The translations under genes were made by a program, and so were the position numbers. Below are positions 22,503 to 41,918 of a stretch of 64,000 nt of DNA, piece after piece. This stretch comes from an uncultured Methanosarcinaceae archaeon (GTDB lineage: Archaea > Halobacteriota > Methanosarcinia > Methanosarcinales > Methanosarcinaceae), in assembly GCA_963727895.1 (NCBI GenBank), contig CAVSHT010000005.1, positions 416,001-480,000 of the forward strand. The letters run 5' to 3'. How positions within the stretch are numbered: position 1 is the first letter of the stretch; every line of letters starts with the position of its first letter. Below the pieces are notes generated by a model. That model worked only from the letters and a program-made list of their open reading frames with translations. It made no database searches and was not told the origin of the DNA.

Positions 22503-23110
22503 GGTTTCGTTGCAAAAAATATCTGTTAAGGATATAATCAAATAAAAGGGAAGTAAAGGATAATGACATGCTATCTAATCCCTTTAAATGGAAGCATTTT
22601 GTGGGTGAAATTATTTTATTGAATGTTAGATTGTACTTAAAATATCCATTAAGTTATCGAAATTTAAAGGAAATGATGGCAGAAAGGGGAGTAATAGTCA
22701 ACCATACAACCATTATGAGATGGGTACATCAATACTCTCCTGAAATCGAAAAGAAGGTACGTAGATATTTAAGACCAACTAATAACTCTTGGAGAGTTGA
22801 TGAAACCTGTATAAAAGTGAGAGGTGAATGGAAATATTTTTACCGAGCAGTTGACTCAAATGGAGATACAATTGATTTCATGTTAAGTGCAAAACGAGAC
22901 CAAAAAGCAGCGAACAGATTCTTCAAAAAAGCTTTGAATTCTAATCATAATCAAATTCCAAGAGTAATCACAGTTGATAAAAATCCAGCTTATCCACCTG
23001 CTATAAATAAACTGAAAAATGATAAAATACTACCTATAAACGTAGGCATTCGACAAATCAAGTATTTGAATAACATTATAGAACAAGATCATAGATCCAT
23101 TAAACGAATA
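22503..23110 (+). mobile_element. IS6-family element, 3'-truncated by IS1
   Basis: TIR ggtttcgttgcaaaaaa; transposase nearly identical to the 12271 copy; stops at the IS1 end. Confidence 0.9.
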
Positions 23111-23849
23111 GGTATTGCTAACTAAACATAGTTAACTCTTTATTTCTGTATTTCATCAATAGAATAACCGAGTACTTTAGCATTTCAAGACTTTTTTTAT
23201 AACACTTTGTCTTTCTTCTCAATCTTGCTAGAAAGTGCCTCAATATGCTGTTATATCCCTCAACTGTAAATGTTTCTGCTTTTGATTGAGTATGAATAGT
23301 TTCTGGAAGAAACTCTGCATATGCCCTCCAGTGATCTGTCATCACTTCTCCAATGTCTTTTTTCTTCAATTTTTCCCAGAGTAGTTTTCCAGTTTCCGTT
23401 CCTCTACTACCAAAAGAGCAGTTGATGAACTTTTTCCCAACTCTATCAACAGCAATCCAGATCCAGCAATATTTTTTTGTTACCGATGTAAGTGTGCATT
23501 TTATCCATTTCAACAATAGATATCTCATTTTCACTTTTTAGGTCTTCTAACTCCTGACCAAATTTCTTTATCCATCTTTGGACAGAAACATGACTCACCC
23601 CTAAAAATCTTCCTATTGAACGAAAGCCCAATCCTTCAAGATAGAGTTGTAAAGCCTGTCTTTTTACAGAAGCGGAAAAAGCAGTTGATTTTAGCTCTAC
23701 TGTATAGTTATAGCCACAATCATGACATTTGTAGCGTTGACGCCCGCCAACTATACCATTCTTTTTGTGACTGGAACTATTACATCTGGGGCAGTTCATG
23801 AAGAAATATACTTTCTAATAATATATAACTATGTTTAAGTATCAAAGCC
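23111..23849 (-). mobile_element. IS1-family element
   Basis: Ends ggtattgctaactaaa / tttaagtatcaaagcc; InsA 23446-23799, InsB to 23118; no TSD. Confidence 0.93.
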
Positions 23850-23850
23850 A

Positions 23851-24273
23851 AATAAAAAAATTAATTTCAATAAGAATACCTCTATAGGAATAAATTCTAA
23901 AATAACCAAATTTATAGGGTTTGATCTCAAAGGAGCTGACCTTGAAGGAGCTAATTTTAAAGGAGCTACTCTTAAAGGAGCTACTCTTAAAGGAGCCAAT
24001 CTTGAAGGAGCTACTCTTAAAGGAACTAACTTTACAGGAGCTAACCTTGAAGGAACTAGCCTTATGAAGGCTGACCTTGATGGAGCTAACTTTAGATGGA
24101 CTAATATTAAAAGAGCTAAGTTTGATGGATCTAACCTTAATAGAACTAATCTTAGAGAAGCTTATTATTTGACATTTGATCAATTTTCTAAAATGGTAAT
24201 TATTCAACATACAGAAAATCAGTCTAACATTTTTGATTTTGACTTGTCATCTATAAGAAGCCTAATCTTATAG
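23851..24273 (+). pseudogene. Pentapeptide-repeat protein, 5'-truncated
   Basis: In-frame A(D/N/T)LxG repeats (ADLEG ANFKG ATLKG ATLKG ANLEG...) open back to the IS1 end. Confidence 0.8.
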
Positions 24274-34733: not shown

Positions 34734-35427
34734 TGCTATTTACTTGTTTCATATTTTCAGATATTCATAATATCTAAATTTTCGATATCATATTTCAGAT
34801 ACTTGTATCCACCGGCGCTTCATTTGGGCAACGGCCTACGTGTGCGTATCGCGCACGTATTATATATTCTTAAGCCGCCCCGAGCTGATCATTTGCTGGA
34901 CTCGGGAACCGATCTTGTTTATGAGGTTTTTGTCGAGATTTATTAGGCTAAACGTAATTAGCTGCTCTGTATTTGTAGACTTACTTCGGAATCACAGTAA
35001 TTATTAATGACACTCTAAACACTGGTTAACATTTTGTATATCTATCTCAGTAGCTTCACCTCTAAGCTTTCTATAGATCCCACAGTAACGCTTATCACAA
35101 GCTTTTGTACATGTATATGAATTATTTCGATATGCAGAACATCTTAAAGCGTATTCGCACTTGATATCAAACATATCCAGCTCCTTTTAAACTTCAGTTG
35201 TCCCCACTTCATTTTTGAGCCTATTCTAAAACTTAAAATTGCTTCTCTGATGCTCAAATATTTAAAAAGAAAACAGCACAACTGGCTAATGTAAACATTT
35301 AAACACCAGCCAGTTAAGATTTATTTTAGTTATATTTCTCAGCTATGGTTATACGTTTTTACGAGTACCAATAGTTAGGGTGCAAATACTTAAACATCAG
35401 CTACTTAAAATTATTTTTTCCTCTGCT

Positions 35428-35841
35428 TTAGTGGTAGTATTTATTATAATTGTTGTAAAAATTGTGATAACCGCTGTACCAGCTGTTATATTTTGAGTAC
35501 CAGCCGTTATATTTTACCAATCACGCCATATACATTTTGTACCAGTTATCATAATTTTTGTCGTGTTTCTTGTGGTTCCACTCATTCTTTTGTTTGTACC
35601 AACTGTTCTTTTGTCTGTCCCAACTGTTCTTTTGTCTGTCCCAATCGTTCTTTTGGTTGGTCCAATCGTTCTTTTGGCGATCCCAATTATTCTTTTGTTG
35701 GTTCCAATTATTTATATCCCCAGTATTCTTCCCACCATTATTATATGCATTATTTGGAGCTGCACTTACTGCTGCAACTGTCACTGACATTACAAAACAA
35801 AATGCCAGCAAAATTCCTAGTATCTTTCTCATTTTCAGCAT
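35428..35841 (-). pseudogene. Secreted Trp/Asn heptad-repeat protein with in-frame TGA at 35521
   Basis: Signal peptide, W every 7 residues; the frame continues LVKYNGWYSKYNSWYSGYHNFYNNYNKYYH after the TGA. Confidence 0.7.
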
Positions 35842-36609
35842 TTTATTTACCCCATATATTTGCTGTTTAGATAGCCTTCCTTTATTTTCTTAACTATCTC
35901 GCTGATTATTCGCAGCTTGACAATCCTAAAATGAACAAGTTAAAATAGAAACATACTTATAAATATAAATTTATAAAAGATTGATTATTAATAAAATGGG
36001 AATTTTTAAAAATTTAATTAATAAATTAACTATTTGGTATTGTTACTTAAATATATCTAGTTCTTTATTTCTGTATTTCATCAATAGAATAACCGAGTAC
36101 TTTAGCATTTCAAGACTTTTTTATAACACTTTGTCTTTCTTCTCAATCTTGCTAGAAAGTGCCTCAATATGCTGTTATATCCCTCAACTGTAAATGTTTC
36201 TGCTTTGGATTGAGTATGAATCGTTTCTGGAAGAAACTCTGCATATGCCCTCCAGTGATCTGTCATCACTTCTCCAATGTCTTTTTTCTTCAATTTTTCC
36301 CAGAGTAGTTTTCCAGTTTCCGTTCCTCTACTACCAAAAGAACAGTTGATGAACTTTTTCCCAACTCTATCAACAGCAATCCAGATCCAGCAATATTTTT
36401 TTTGTTACCGATGTAAGTGTGCATTTCATCCATTTCAACAATAGATATTTCATTTTCACTTTTTAGAGCCTCTAACTCCTGACCAAATTTCTTTATCCAT
36501 TTTTGGACAGAAACGTGACTTACCCCTAAAACGCACATGCTTTTCTTCGAATAACAAGCACAACTAATGAAAGTACTCTCCGCCCTTTTTTTGACTATTA
36601 AGCCCTCAT

Positions 36610-36750
36610 TACCTTGGGCAGTAAGGTTGTCTCGATTTTGGTTTTTCAAAACCGTCCTAAAACTAATCAGTGAATTGCCATCGAAGGCTCAAGTGTGACT
36701 TTGATCACGGATGCTAAATTGGCCTTTTAGGCAATTCCACTGCCCAAATA
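36610..36750 (+). ncRNA. Putative IS110 bridge RNA
   Basis: Outer stem 36614-22/36739-47 encloses two hairpins, each with an internal loop matching target or donor junction sequence. Confidence 0.65.
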
Positions 36751-36766
36751 AATTTGGTGATCTAAT

Positions 36767-38030
36767 TTGATTGAAGTAATAACAAAGCTTGTGGTTTAGA
36801 CATTCACAAACTCTTTTTCATTGCTACAATTTTCAGTAGATCTGGTGAAAAACAACAGCAACGTTTCAACAGAGATGATGAAGGAATTTTAGCCCTTAAA
36901 AATTGGGTAATATCAGAAAAATGTGATGTTGTTGCATGTGAATCAACCAGCGACTTTTGGGTTCCGATTCATGATTCATTGGTAAAGCATCTAACTGTGA
37001 TAGTTGGAAATGCGCGAGATATGAAGGTATTTACCCATACAAAAACATATAAGATTGACTCAGAAGTCATTGCACAACTTGCACTTAATAATATGATTCA
37101 GCCATCAAGAGTTTTTCCAAAGGATCATATAGATTTTAGATCATATGTTCGACTTCGGTTAACACTTGTACAAAAAAGAACAGATTTAAAAAATAAAGCT
37201 CACTCAATTCTTGCATCTGAAATTCAATTCTTGCATCTGAAATGCTACACCTGAATAATGTGCTGACAGACGTTTTTGGCAAGAATGGCAGAATGATCTT
37301 ATTAGGAATCTCTTCAGGTAAGAGTGTTGGTCAGATTATTGCAAGCCTCTCTCCAAATGTTCGGAAAAAAGCTGCTCAGATAAGAGAAATTCTTGATCGA
37401 GAAATTTCTCAAAGTGCTGCATTCAGACTTCAGATCTGTCTGAAACTCATAAAAAGTCTTGATGATGAACTCGAAGCTTTAGAAACAGAAATTTTCAATT
37501 ATGCTTCTCGAAATCATAAGCGAGAAATGGAGATTTTAATGTCAGTTCCAGGTATAGGGGAACTTGGTGCGGCAATTTTACTTGCTGAAATAGGCAACTT
37601 TAAGGATTTTTCTTCTGGAAATAAGCTTGCTTCTTGGCTTGGTCTAGTTCCTAATGTGTATCAATCTGCAGATAAATACTATAACGGCAGAATCACAAAG
37701 AGGGGATCAAAAGTAGCAAGGTGGATTCTGACACAGATTGCTCAAGCAGCAGCAAGAAAGAAGAATAGCAGGTTAAAAGAGTTTTTTAACAGAAAAAAGA
37801 AGTCGATTGGACATGCAAAAGCAATTATTGTCTTAGCAAGGAAAATTGCAACGATACTATGGCATCTTATTACAAACGATGAGATGGACGAAGATGAAAC
37901 CGGATATCAAAAGGGAGAAATCCAAAAGAGAAAGATTATTGAGACTGAGATTTTTTCGGTTGATGAACGGATTAAAATAATTAGTGAAATATTTGCGATT
38001 ATGGGGAAAAAGGATCAAGAGAGCACGTGA
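36767..38030 (+). pseudogene. IS110 recombinase/transposase, frameshifted
   Basis: ACGLDIHK, ACESTSDFW, SVPGIG..AEIG..F..LASWLGLVPNVYQSA, ARK. 20-bp tandem duplication at 37204-37243 and an apparent frameshift near the start. Confidence 0.88.
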
Positions 38031-38392
38031 GGATAATCTCCTCATGTACTTTCATGCTAAAATCTTCCTATTGAGCGAAAGCCCAATCCTTCAAGATAGA
38101 GTTGTAAAGCCTGTCTTTTTACAGAAGCGGAAAAAGCAGTTGATTTTAGCTCTACTGTATAGTTATAGCCACAATCATGACATTTGTAGCGTTGACGCCC
38201 GCCAACTATACCGTTCTTTTTGTGACTGGAACTATTACATCTGGGGCAGTTCATGAAGAAATATAGGTTCTCAGAATAAATAACTATGTTTAAGTATCAA
38301 TGCCATAATTTCAAAATAGATATATCTTATATTCGTGCAATAACTACAGGTAGAATAATCTGTAGATAAAATTAGCGACGGGTGAACCTGGA

Positions 38393-39004
38393 ATGGAGTC
38401 AACAAAAAAAGATGAAACTTTAAAAGCGCTGGTCATTATAGATATGACTAACGATTTCGTGTATGAGACATACGAACATGAAGGTACGTTATATGAAGGA
38501 AAACTTGTAGCTCCTATGGGAAAGGAAATAGTCGACAAAATAGCCAGGTTAATAATTAAAGTAATACGTGAAGGAACTGTCAGCATTATCAGGCTTCCGA
38601 AGGATCATCTCAATGCCTTTATGAATCCCGAACTTGAACTGAAAGTTGCAGAACTGGGAATCAATGAAGTATTTATAACAGGCTTGGTTGAGGAAGTTTG
38701 CATATACATTAATAGTCTGAGTTTCCTTGAAAGAGGTTTTCGAACAAATATTGTGAAAGGTTGTACAGCACCTTTTGATGAAGAAAAAGGGAGAGAGGCT
38801 TTCAGGGAACTTACAAAATGCGGAGCAAAAATGGTTGAAGATATTCCTGAAGACATAAAGGTTATCCTGCTCCTCGAAGATCAACACGATGAAAATTCCG
38901 AAGAAATAAAGTCCGGAGACTGGCCACCCCATAATATGAAAGGAACCCCTGGAGCCATGACCGTAAAGATAATCCGGGATGTGCTTGAGGGAAGGAATAG
39001 TTAA
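38393..39004 (+). CDS. Isochorismatase/nicotinamidase-like cysteine hydrolase with rearranged segment order
   Basis: IIDMTNDFV, K..NAF, GLVEEVC, and DQH..WPPHNMKGTPGA at the C-terminus. Confidence 0.8.
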   Translation: MESTKKDETLKALVIIDMTNDFVYETYEHEGTLYEGKLVAPMGKEIVDKIARLIIKVIREGTVSIIRLPKDHLNAFMNPELELKVAELGINEVFITGLVEEVCIYINSLSFLERGFRTNIVKGCTAPFDEEKGREAFRELTKCGAKMVEDIPEDIKVILLLEDQHDENSEEIKSGDWPPHNMKGTPGAMTVKIIRDVLEGRNS

Positions 39005-39129
39005 AATATATCAATTTTCTACAGGGAAAAATTTCTAGCTTTCTATAACCTATTTAGATATATTAAGGGAGCCACATTTGATTATTCTCTATTCAATAAA
39101 TAGCATAAGAATCAGTTCTAATTTGAACT

Positions 39130-39300
39130 TTTAGTGTCTTTATTTTCAAGAATGTTTTTTGATTCCGTTTTTGTGATTTCATATTTAAACTGAATGACTA
39201 AGCTACCTACATTACTTTCAGGTGGAGTTATTGTTGGGGTAAAGATTGCCATATTTACAAATACTCCCAGAGTTATTAAGAGAAAATCATAACAACAATA
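39130..39300 (-). pseudogene. UPF0228-like N-terminal remnant
   Basis: VGSLVIQFKYEITKTESKNILEN resembles VPGLLIKFEDGISEQEVKAILES of 59551-60150. Confidence 0.45.
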
Positions 39301-39465
39301 ATAAAGGCAATTTTTATAGTTCCTTTATTCATAACTACCACTGATAATAAATTATGATGTATCAAGTTATGATGTCAGCTTCTCAATATGTGGTAATCTT
39401 CTTTATGCATTACAAAACTGGAAGTTTACGCATTTATTTCTGAAATCTCATACTTCTGGATCTTC

Positions 39466-40962
39466 TTAGTGGTTTTGCCTATTATTTTCATCTTCAAGGT
39501 TTTCAAAATCCTCAAAGTCCTCATTTTTGTTTTGTTTTTTAAAGGTTTTATTTTTCAGACTAAGTGCCACTATAAAAACTGCAAGTAAAAGAACTATAGG
39601 GAATCTAAAGAAATGAAGCAATTCAGGAAGCTTTATTGAATTTTCTGTAGAATTTGATTCATCTGAAGTATGATTGATTTCACTTTTTGTATTGCCAGCC
39701 ACATTGCTTGAAGAGTTTGGAACAATCTCAACTATATTTTCAGCACTTCCAGTTGTTACCAAACCTCCTTTTAGCGGCAGGTCAGTTTTTGCTTCTTTAT
39801 CGAGATATAAGTTTTTGAGTCCTTCACTTGAAAGAAAACGTGCATCTCCAAAAAGCCGTGCAAAAACTGTAGAATTCCGCTCAAAAAGATATGCTGCTCC
39901 ATCTTTACTTCCCGCAGCAAGGATCGAACTATCGCTGGAAATTGCTATGCTGTTAATGTTTCCCCTACTACTATAGTTCCAGAACTCCTTTCCTTCCATA
40001 TCAAGGACGTAAAGACTGTCATCCCAGCTTCCAGCTGCAATAAACGATTCATCTGGAGAAATTGCAACACAATAGACATCATCTTTTGTCTGGTAATCCC
40101 AGAGTTTAGTGCCTGTATTGTTAAACAGATAGACTTTATCGTCAAAACTTCCGGCTGCAAGATATGATCCATTGCTTGTTAGCGAAACACTGCTGATCCA
40201 GTAAGCAGGATTGTGAATCCACGAAAATTCTCCTTTCTTAGTGAGGAGATAAACATTATAATTAGATCCTCCGGCAGCTACATAAGTGGCTTGCGGAGTC
40301 ATACAGACGCTATTGATTACACTGCCCGTCCTTTTTTCCCATAGTTTATTTCCTCTGATGTCAAAGAGATAAATACATTGATTGGAACTGCCAGCTGTAA
40401 TATAAGATCCATCTTTAGACATGGCTATGCTTCGGATGGAATCTTTTGAATCAAAACTCCATAAAAGCTTTCCTTCTCTATTGAAAAAGTAGATCTTACC
40501 GTCTTCGCTGCCTGCTGCTACATATGAACCATCAGAAGAGATTTTAACACCATTCAGACTGCCTCCTGTTTCATAACTCCATAGCAGGTTTCCTTTTCTG
40601 TCAAAGCAGTATACTTTCTTATCATTGCTCCCTGCGGCTATAAGTGTTCCATCAGGAGAAATCGATACACTGTAGACAACGTCTCCTGTAGTGTAATTCC
40701 AGAGTTTCGTCCCCTCTAAATTAAAAAGAGAAACATTATGATCAAAGTCTCCAATTGCAAGATAGTTTCCCCCTGAAGAAAGAGAAACCGTATTGATTAT
40801 ACATCCGGTTTCACATTTGCAAAGCAGGTCAAAAGCCCCGGATTCCGAATTGTTTGTATCCTCATGATTCAGAATTACGGGGTCTGCAGTTCCTAAATAT
40901 GCAAACAGACCGAAGAGCAAAACCAGTGCTAGAAATACCCATATTCGCGCTGACTGTCCCAT
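39466..40962 (-). CDS. Secreted WD40/PQQ-like beta-propeller protein with C-terminal TM anchor
   Basis: About 8 repeats of VxISxDGxYIAAGSxDxxVYxFxxxGxxLW. Confidence 0.88.
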   Translation of the reverse strand: MGQSARIWVFLALVLLFGLFAYLGTADPVILNHEDTNNSESGAFDLLCKCETGCIINTVSLSSGGNYLAIGDFDHNVSLFNLEGTKLWNYTTGDVVYSVSISPDGTLIAAGSNDKKVYCFDRKGNLLWSYETGGSLNGVKISSDGSYVAAGSEDGKIYFFNREGKLLWSFDSKDSIRSIAMSKDGSYITAGSSNQCIYLFDIRGNKLWEKRTGSVINSVCMTPQATYVAAGGSNYNVYLLTKKGEFSWIHNPAYWISSVSLTSNGSYLAAGSFDDKVYLFNNTGTKLWDYQTKDDVYCVAISPDESFIAAGSWDDSLYVLDMEGKEFWNYSSRGNINSIAISSDSSILAAGSKDGAAYLFERNSTVFARLFGDARFLSSEGLKNLYLDKEAKTDLPLKGGLVTTGSAENIVEIVPNSSSNVAGNTKSEINHTSDESNSTENSIKLPELLHFFRFPIVLLLAVFIVALSLKNKTFKKQNKNEDFEDFENLEDENNRQNH

Positions 40963-41180: not shown

Positions 41181-41918
41181 GGCATTGGTAAACAAAAATA
41201 GATATATATGCTTATAACATATATTTCTTCATGAACTGCCCCAGATGTAATAGTTCCAGTCACAAAAATAATGGTATAGTTGGCGGGCGTCAACGCTACA
41301 AATGTCATGATTGTGGCTATAACTATACAGTAGAGCTAAAATCAACTGCTTTTTCCGCTTCTGTAAAAAGACAGGCTTTACAACTCTATCTTGAAGGATT
41401 AGGCTTTCGTTCAATAGGAAGATTTTTAGGGGTGAGTCATGTTTCTGTCCAAAGATGGATAAAGAAATTTGGTCAGGAGTTAGAGGCTCTAAAAAGTGAA
41501 AATGAAATATCTATTGTTGAAATGGATGAAATGCACACTTACATCGGTAACAAAAAAAATATTGCTGGATCTGGATTGCTGTTGATAGAGTTGGGAAAAA
41601 GTTCATCAACTGTTCTTTTGGTAGTAGAGGAACGGAAACTGGAAAACTACTCTGGGAAAAATTGAAGAAAAAAGACATTGGAGAAGTGATGACAGATCAC
41701 TGGAGGGCATATGCAGAGTTTCTTCCAGAAACTATTCATACTCAATCAAAAGCAGAAACATTTACAGTTGAGGGATATAACAGCATATTGAGGCACTTTC
41801 TAGCAAGATTGAGAAGAAAGACAAAGTGTTATAAAAAAGTCTTGAAATGCTAAAGTACTCGGTTATTCTATTGATAAATACAGAAATAAAAAACTAGATA
41901 TATTTAAGTAACAATGCC
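41181..41918 (+). mobile_element. IS1-family element
   Basis: Ends ggcattggtaaacaaa / tttaagtaacaatgcc; InsA/InsB ORFs; no clear TSD. Confidence 0.93.

Follow-up and report, generated by a model that had tools for sequence, protein, structure and literature searches.

An element of the IS110 superfamily occupies positions 36529-38058 (+) of a 64,000-nucleotide (nt) stretch of DNA from an uncultured Methanosarcinaceae archaeon (GenBank assembly GCA_963727895.1, contig CAVSHT010000005.1, positions 416,001 to 480,000; hereafter the window), where it lies inside a copy of a resident IS1-family insertion sequence (IS). It very probably belongs to a methanogen clade whose members move by bridge-RNA-guided recombination, loop 1 of its RNA specifying a site in the abundant IS1. 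Judged from the covariation of its stems and from loop strands that track the insertion junctions, the RNA is a bridge RNA. The evidence comes from the anatomy of the element, the structural covariation of its RNA, the covariation of guides with junctions, a census of targets and the independence of most IS1 insertions. An initial annotation of the window had described the element in these terms; its observations are confirmed and its interpretation is supported, with the corrections given below.

Ends and core of the element

The element measures 1,530 nt including one copy of an AAA core, over which its boundary slides by 3 nt. The genome holds 22 near-full copies with the same ends, 92.6-100% identical by BLAST, and further matches comprise one internally deleted copy, a few fragments and one truncated relative of 77% identity. 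The limits originally assigned, 36521-38068, enclosed the element together with 8 nt and 10 nt of IS1 flank. At the left junction (36523-36539) ...CCCCTAAAA is followed by CGCACATG, and at the right one (38050-38068) ...TTTCATGCTAAA is followed by ATCTTCC. The intact site, CCCTAAAAATCTTCC, reads at 23599-23613 (+) and 41417-41431 (-), in the two IS1 copies (at 23111 and 41181) where the initial annotation had placed it, and there are three near matches; five matches compare with 0.30 expected, a number that none of 100 shuffles reached.

The left-end terminus CGCACATG (36532-36539, +), which forms the right donor arm after the core, is the start shared by 19 of the 22 copies, the others being one with the variant CATACATG, two in which the flank is changed and one truncated copy; homologs begin C-N3-[CT]ATG. 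The left end (C..AC) follows CTAAAA in 19 of the 22 copies and CTACAA in two, the last junction being truncated. On the other side, the right-end tip GTACTTTCATGCT with its core copy AAA (38059-38061) spans 38046-38061 (+), and 21 of the 22 right ends read ...TTTCATGCTAAA. The alignable junctions have the forms CTAAAA followed by C... and ...CATGCTAAA followed by any nucleotide, that is, those of a site-specific element with a short core at both junctions and no long terminal inverted repeats. Together with the recombinase domains PF01548 and PF02371 this places the element in the IS110 superfamily, as had been supposed.

The core was defined by counting adenines. The window junctions contain four As on the left and four on the right, against five in the empty site, and in every junction pair the sum of left and right As exceeds the number in the corresponding empty site by three. 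Once joined, the donor ends must hence carry three As (CATGCTAAACGCAC; CATGCT-AAA-CGCAC), which bears out the donor junction deduced earlier, and exchange falls inside the A tract. Contigs from RNA libraries (four runs, shares 0.07-0.10), which derive from relatives and cover a relative's scaffold, gene and empty IS1 site, lead to the same core: in the empty IS1 contigs 36528 is joined to 38059, with 1,530 nt skipped and a 3-nt ambiguity, from which AAA follows. The A-rich core first proposed is thus AAA. A CT core as in IS621 was rejected by arithmetic, since the junction A counts that it predicts are not observed.

The RNA scaffold

About 240 nt of non-coding DNA lie upstream of the recombinase gene, against some 30 nt downstream. 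The upstream part contains a scaffold of six helices at 36613-36749 (+), recognized by its fold, by pairing counts and by a covariance model score of 156.9 bits. The outer stem P1 (36614-22/36739-47; TTGGGCAGT with ACTGCCCAA) encloses hairpin 1 (36625-36668), formed by P2 (36625-29/36664-68) and P3 (36640-45/36648-53), and hairpin 2 (36672-36737), formed by P4 (36672-79/36730-37), P5 (36684-88/36722-26) and P6 (36695-98/36705-08), all read on the + strand. The minimum-energy fold of 36610-36752 (143 nt) reproduces the outer stem and the two hairpins where the initial annotation had drawn them, with -42.3 kcal/mol against -29.7 +/- 3.7 for shuffled sequences (z = -3.45; none of 200 as good). 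The entire 252-nt left end folds no better than its shuffles (z = -0.60).

The recombinase of a sister copy, used as query, retrieved 54 loci in other genomes, 18 of them with the same scaffold upstream of the gene. The six helices were taken from the single-sequence fold, placed on the alignment of these 18 sequences and tested by counting. Helix cells are paired in 89.6% of cases, against 27-50% after a shift of the partners by 1-3 columns; compensatory change is seen in eight pairs, and the covariation score was reached by none of 500 shuffles, so that the stems covary as the proposed fold demands. An RNAalifold consensus on the same alignment was poorer (-14.3 kcal/mol, with small local hairpins in hairpin 2) and was not used. 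The covariance model matches 50 of 50 sources, including sequences upstream of recombinases only 41% and 37% identical, and finds the scaffold in 23 of 151 sampled genomes of the order, which represent seven of 23 genera and, within the genus itself, nine of the 12 further genomes. Rfam gave no family for 35000-40000 at E <= 10, three chance-level matches elsewhere apart. As in bridge RNAs and seekRNAs, a structured region with two internal loops stands beside the recombinase gene.

A conserved run of T followed by GACTATTAA is present at 36590-36612 and in homologs (TTTTTTGACTATTAA; GTATATTAA in some relatives), some 15-20 nt before P1. It might act as an archaeal TATA-like promoter for the RNA in the integrated element.

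Guides and junctions

While the stems of the scaffold are conserved, its four loop strands vary from element to element. In the window the 5' strand of loop 1, the right target guide CGAUUUU (36633-36639, +), is the complement of top-strand AAAATCG, and the 3' strand, the left target guide CCUAAAA (36656-36662, +), is identical to the top-strand left flank; both matches had been read correctly at the outset. The 3' strand of loop 2, the left donor guide AUGCUAAA (36711-36718, +), is identical to the right-end tip plus core, the same ATGCTAAA being found at 36711-36718 and at 38054-38061, and the match between hairpin 2 and the donor, noted at the outset, is thus real.

For the comparison among relatives the left and right ends were located beforehand through conserved end motifs, independently of the guides. 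The left target guide, taken as the 7 nt before the 3' strand of P2, agrees with the left flank at 98 of 112 positions in 16 loci, against 70.4 after permutation (reached in 0 of 20,000), and at the four positions outside the A tract agreement is 51 of 64 against 23.4. The left donor guide (eight nt, AUGNNAAA) agrees with the right-end tip at 108 of 112 positions in 14 loci (91.3 permuted; 0 of 20,000), and the variants CT, TT, CC, GA (G-A) and AGA (AG-A) change on both sides. Donor guide and right-end tip are inherited together and independent changes are therefore few, about five; target flanks are not inherited together with the element. The reverse complement of the right target guide agrees with the right junction at 85 of 117 positions in 13 loci (73.0 permuted; 4 of 20,000), the best of three registers being taken by the same rule in the permutations. 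A further comparison used 46 loci from a model-based alignment, which include the earlier 16 and a few loci duplicated across two collections. The element's own left guide followed by C was found 66-98 nt upstream, exactly in 19 of the 46 and with at most one mismatch in 32, while non-self left guides gave 17 exact matches and 234 with at most one mismatch in 1,968 trials in the same region.

Agreement extends to several copies within one genome. Methanosarcina spelaei, with guides CAGAAAA and AAAATAAGG, has nine left flanks that mostly end in AGAAAA and 15 right flanks, 13 of them distinct, that mostly start AAA-TAAG. In G140, a complete genome of the same genus (Methanosarcina, going by the names of relatives), ten copies carry the guides GAUAAAA and AAAATAAGUAC; (G/A)ATAAAA precedes them and AAA-TAAG follows. 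A second subfamily, whose guide is AGAAAAA, is preceded by flanks that end in GAAAAA or TAAAAA. The five identical copies of Methanospirillum purgamenti show guide-to-flank agreement likewise. Covariation between loop and target, proposed beforehand as the test of the idea, thus proves strongly positive across relatives, and loop strands covary with target flanks as they do in bridge RNAs and seekRNAs.

The two donor arms differ: the left arm (the right-end tip) is matched by its guide at the 108 of 112 positions given above, and a guide for the right arm (the left-end start) was not found. The opposite (5') strand of loop 2 (CAAGTGTG; CAAGUGUG), put forward initially for that role, was set aside. 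It forms 7 of 8 pairs with the left-end start in the window and 2-6 of 8 in relatives, counted by hand; its bases belong to P6, a stem whose two sides change together (GUGA/UCAC to GCGA/UCGC), and no covariation links it to the left end. Within the left end, ATGAAAGTAC (36567-36576, +) is an inverted repeat of the right-end tip GTACTTTCAT (38046-38055). An inverted repeat of 8-11 nt at left-end offset 30-36 occurs in 15 of 15 elements examined (loci including L003-L035), and in other clades its two copies are altered together (GGACTTTCAT/ATGAAAGTCC; GTTTTTCAT/ATGAAAAAC). This repeat could be a protein site, could pair in a junction-spanning transcript or could stand in for the right-donor guide.

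The truncated member of 77% identity (C4:93227-94172, -; contig and positions in the assembly) has left guide ACUGAAA and donor guide AUGUCAAA, and sits after ...CACTAAAA, outside IS1.

IS1 as target

The IS1-family element is extraordinarily abundant in this genome, with roughly 235 copies; BLAST returns 298 segments, 191 copies are full-length, and IS1 accounts for 4.9% of the DNA. The site is uninterrupted in 221 copies, as CCTAAAACTCTTCC in 132, CCTAAAAATCGTCC in 45, CCTAAAAATCTTCC in 12 and thirteen rarer forms in a total of 32. Genome-wide there are 48 occurrences of CCTAAAAATCG, the 11-nt word that the two halves of loop 1 match in full, and all but two (46) are in IS1; the perfect target is nearly confined to IS1 and the targeting proposed by the initial annotation is supported. 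For its left half, CCTAAAA, the count is 1,313, of which 832 are neither in IS1 nor in the element.

Among the 22 copies, left junctions lie in IS1 in 12 cases, in short IS1 remnants in two and in other DNA in seven, one being truncated; right junctions lie in IS1 in 14 cases and in other DNA in seven, one being interrupted. IS1 flanks both sides of nine copies and neither side of three, with about eight mixed, and the orientation of the element to IS1 is identical in all cases. Set against a generous 33% share of CCTAAAA in IS1 DNA, the 12 IS1 left junctions of 22 give p = 0.04. Site variants with AAAAATC are occupied in 6 of 64 IS1 copies (58 empty), against 3 of 145 (142 empty) for AAAACTC (odds ratio 4.9; Fisher p = 0.025); for the perfect form alone, four occupied against 46 empty give p = 0.07.

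The copies with IS1 on one side are C5:290068-291656, C11:229046-230595, C4:393015-394544, C4:52533-54061, C9:234238-235787, C11:264725-266273, C3:101614-103155 and C3:275973-277518. IS1 is on the right only in four and on the left only in three or four, and CTAAAA still closes the left flanks that are not IS1. Right-only and left-only copies are about equally frequent, which suggests reciprocal exchange between copies (inversions); assembly joins or misassembly may be the alternative source. The non-IS1 sites match the left half only, and they fit the report in a preprint (10.64898/2026.08.31.748434) that IS621 uses substrates matching only half of its bridge RNA.

The recombinase gene

The gene of the window copy (36767-38030, +; TTG start) is a pseudogene, as the open reading frame (ORF) table, copy alignment and translations indicate, with PF02371 on a remnant of 262 amino acids (E = 3e-27). 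It is broken, as first implied, in three places: one nucleotide is deleted near codon 6; TAT stands for GAT at 37048-37050, which changes Asp to Tyr in a K-T-D-x-x-D motif seen in rows of the family alignment in the supplement of PMC11208160; and a 20-base pair (bp) tandem duplication is present at 37205-37244. The RNA-library contigs of relatives omit 20 nt at 37202, the position of the duplication. The sister copy at C4:393015-394544 has a frame of 390 amino acids with a TTG start, PF01548 (E = 2.5e-17) and PF02371 (E = 3.6e-26). Four copies are about 20 nt shorter and do not have the duplication length; none of the four is intact. Intact relatives have open frames of 416 codons (a protein of about 413 amino acids), in two subfamilies in G140.

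Against the PDB the recombinase matches IS621 by its C-terminal domain only (E = 3.6e-9), and ISCro4 likewise by its C-terminal domain only; tblastn against plasmids returns generic "IS110 family transposase" labels at 23-38% identity. Placement in the IS110 or the IS1111 group was attempted on these grounds and abandoned, the labels being generic and the PDB match C-terminal, and neither settles the group. The close relatives L029, L030, L036 and L008 are on short contigs binned as Deltaproteobacteria, Cloacimonadota or Oricola metagenome-assembled genomes (MAGs); they are probably misbinned methanogen DNA, the alternative being transfer to bacteria.

Genome setting and the host IS1

The genome amounts to 3.67 Mb in 19 contigs with 36% G+C, the window being on contig C5. 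The archaeal small-subunit ribosomal RNA model scores 1547.8 bits across its full length, in accordance with the archaeal host assumed, and the nearest relatives of the IS110-superfamily element are in Methanosarcina isolates and MAGs.

The host IS1 is an element of about 740 bp with an intact copy at 23111-23850, whose ORF matches PF03400 (DDE_Tnp_IS1, E = 5.5e-16) and HTH_23 (E = 2.8e-7), its zinc-ribbon giving a weak match only (PF12760, E = 0.0067). A DDE_Tnp_IS1 domain with a zinc-ribbon and helix-turn-helix part ahead identifies the family and agrees with the initial reading. This copy consists of two overlapping frames of 117 and 138 amino acids. By BLAST of 23111-23850 against the genome, the interrupted host has a left arm, in window orientation, at 36036-36528 (-), which carries the DDE part of the transposase and ends in the left target ...CCCCTAAAA, and a right arm at 38059-38305 (-), which carries the N-terminal zinc-ribbon and helix-turn-helix part. 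The insertion breaks the frame between ...GRF and LGVSHV, leaving an ORF of 65 amino acids (38057-38254, -) compared with the intact one of 117 (23446-23799, -).

An IS6/IS240-type transposase gene (22568-23125, +; PF13610, E = 2.9e-35) adjoins the intact IS1; the last 115 nt of this element are found about 60 times genome-wide, which makes it a second highly amplified element. Repetitive, low-complexity ORF products stand beside IS copies at 35521-35841 (-) and 23842-24210 (-), with N/W/Q/K-rich repeats and S/F/K repeats.

Discussion

In the mechanism proposed, an RNA of about 137 nt would be produced from the left end, upstream of the DEDD recombinase gene, and would be bound by the recombinase. 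Its outer stem would surround two hairpins with one internal loop each, loop 1 reading the target, with two pairings that overlap on the 3-nt AAA core, and loop 2 reading the element's own joined ends. With its ends joined, for instance as a circle, the donor (CATGCT-AAA-CGCACATG) would exchange strands with the target (CCCCTA-AAA-ATCG) inside AAA, and this would yield the observed junctions with one core copy per side. The 11-nt site that loop 1 matches is in the helix-turn-helix coding part of IS1, and every insertion there breaks that IS1 copy. On this mechanism the match accounts for the piling up of insertions in IS1, always in one orientation; sites matching the left half alone are used less often.

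Landing in IS1 could be of selective value to the element, IS1 being then the safe-harbour target suggested by the initial annotation. From that suggestion the guide match and the preference for IS1 stand, and a selected strategy is conjectural. A serious contender, not far short of an even chance, is that loop 1 drifts among short A-rich words and that the amplified IS1 supplies a fitting one, with no selection for landing there. The guides are only 7+7 nt long and share the A core, relatives with other guides enter unique A-rich DNA and not repeats, the right guide is a poor match for CTCT, the most frequent IS1 variant with 132 copies, and seven insertions are outside IS1. On the opposite side, both half-guides fit the same IS1 site, where 46 of the 48 perfect sites are found, and 22 copies are present here against 1-4 matches in 20 of 22 other matching genomes; neither fact is proof of selection.

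It is improbable, in turn, that the element entered one IS1 a single time and that its copies spread as passengers of IS1 transposition, helped in trans, with no targeting of IS1. Such hitch-hiking would agree with an IS1 as active as its 221 uninterrupted sites indicate, with two occupied left arms that are mutually nearest (98.2%, against 97.0-97.2% to any empty copy), and with the sequence TCATCC, common to three right junctions and found in none of the 221 empty sites; these three junctions probably share one origin. Nevertheless, when the ten occupied full IS1 left arms are compared, the nearest relative is an empty copy for seven, with one tie and two nearest to each other, several margins being below 1%, and four or more IS1 site variants are represented among the occupied copies. 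Seven junctions on the left and seven on the right lie in DNA other than IS1; the seven left flanks concerned all end in CTAAAA nevertheless, and the guide itself matches the IS1 site. On this comparison most IS1 insertions look independent. That the recombinase alone recognizes an A tract, common to all targets of the clade, and that the folded 5' end is a messenger RNA leader controlling translation or stability, is very unlikely indeed, since a leader cannot explain why flank positions outside the A tract follow each element's own loop (51 of 64 positions, where permutation gives 23.4; exact matches in 19 of 46 loci, where non-self guides give 0.9%), and the right-end tip tracks loop 2 likewise.

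Several observations weigh against guided movement into IS1 as described. The right-target match is weaker than the left, the window site having ATCT where the guide prefers ATCG, and three IS1 insertions are in the CTCT variant, which fits the right guide poorly. About eight copies are flanked by IS1 on one side only. At five of the 14 IS1 right junctions there are three As, one fewer than expected from the common empty sites; IS1 variants with four As, though rare (five empty copies), would suit both guides with a 4-nt overlap and may explain these short junctions. The loci used for covariation are related, a few being the same locus twice, and independent donor-guide events are therefore overcounted. 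When every alignment column was compared with positions 1-10 of the left end across 32 loci in search of the right-donor guide, the only signals were those of whole clades or of single outliers, and no diagonal emerged. The RNA-library contigs belong to relatives only, give no starts, ends or levels, may contain DNA, and their gaps are meaningless.

The remaining objections concern the recombinase. None of the 22 copies in the assembly has an undamaged frame, and 16-18 of them, judging by length, carry the 20-bp duplication at different loci. The same frame-breaking duplication at different loci implies that damaged copies seem to have multiplied in trans or by conversion. The helper recombinase that the spread of damaged copies requires was not found in this assembly, and as all copies are damaged, present movement would need a recombinase from a copy not seen here. 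Either a helper must have mobilized these copies or the family is no longer alive in this genome.

If guided recombination is accepted, the clade would be an archaeal natural example of the way in which a bridge RNA is read and reprogrammed, with dozens of relatives that share one scaffold, differ in their 7+7-nt guides and are each placed where their own loops specify. The element would moreover be a transposon with its best sites inside the gene of another transposon, here quantified, which is one route by which a mobile element can multiply with little burden on the host. Methanosarcina has a genetic system, and if that holds the clade is a candidate programmable recombinase for methanogens.

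Comparison with known systems

No prior description of an archaeal bridge RNA or of an IS110 insertion into IS1 was found in the literature searched; supplementary tables of PMC11208160 or on bioRxiv may already cover the clade. Archaeal counterparts are ISMac14, ISMba7, ISMba20 and ISMma5 (Methanosarcina, ISfinder), IS110-family recombinases with N-terminal motifs alike that form one cluster in the supplementary alignment of PMC11208160; in the rows of this cluster the sequence is clearly diverged from that of the element, judged by eye. Sites inside another mobile element are used in the same superfamily by IS4321/IS5075 (terminal repeats of the Tn21 family) and by the IS1111-attC group (integron attC), as the titles cited in PMC11208160 indicate. 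According to these titles, those elements are bacterial, of IS1111 type, and enter transposon ends or cassette sites, whereas the site here is in an IS1-family transposase gene of an archaeon.

The element resembles IS621 and other ISEc21-type IS110 members (Durrant et al. 2024, PMC11208160; Siddiquee et al. 2024, PMC11187229) in its DEDD recombinase with PF01548 and PF02371, in the long non-coding left end upstream of the gene, in the order of target loop and donor loop, in the pairing of both strands by each loop with overlap on the core, and in the core duplicated at both junctions. It differs in that the guide order is reversed in each loop: in those elements the bottom-strand guide is 5' of the top-strand guide, and here the complement of the top strand is 5' and that of the bottom strand 3'. 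The core is AAA and not the CT dinucleotide of IS621, the protein of intact relatives, of about 413 amino acids, aligns with that of IS621 by the C-terminal domain only, and an inverted repeat of 8-11 nt connects the tip of the right end with a point some 35 nt inward from the left end.

The guide order is that of the IS1111 type (ISEc11, ISKpn4, ISPa11). In the passages of PMC11187229 on guide order, the top-strand complement comes first in IS1111-type seekRNAs and second in the IS110 type (ISEc21); the difference from IS621 noted in the initial annotation is hence real, and its novelty is not, the order being already described. Like the IS1111 type the element has inverted repeats near its ends, and the nine nt between two CATG words at the inferred circle junction equal the 6+3 terminal extensions that the same source gives for some IS1111 members. 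The scaffold at 36613-36749 is, by contrast, upstream of the recombinase gene, while in the source's account a non-coding region downstream of the gene is the rule for IS1111 types and one upstream is the rule for IS110 types, ISMtsp17 being among the rare exceptions. For the IS1111 type the source gives subterminal repeats of 11-13 bp with extensions of 7 (or 6) and 3 bp, against a terminal CATG(AAA) repeat of 4-8 bp and a repeat of 8-11 bp about 35 nt inside the left end here, and transposases of 330-350 amino acids, against the 416 codons of the intact relatives. As read from sequence, the element is an upstream RNA position combined with an IS1111-type guide order, a known order in another combination.

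RNA position and guide order, coupled in the literature, can then be uncoupled, and this constrains models of how the groups diverged. A bolder reading, tentative and rather doubtful, is that the clade has a third layout and stands between the two groups, with an upstream RNA, IS1111-type polarity in both loops, a 3-nt A core and a covarying 10-nt repeat about 35 nt inside the left end. Owing to the dyad symmetry of duplex DNA, a guide order swapped in both loops amounts to target and donor turned round relative to the RNA, and the genes would consequently be on the donor arm opposite to that of IS621. Natural reprogramming would have made the element a parasite of another transposon, with most copies non-autonomous and moved in trans. 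If true, this third layout would bear on how the RNA moved between the ends of the elements.

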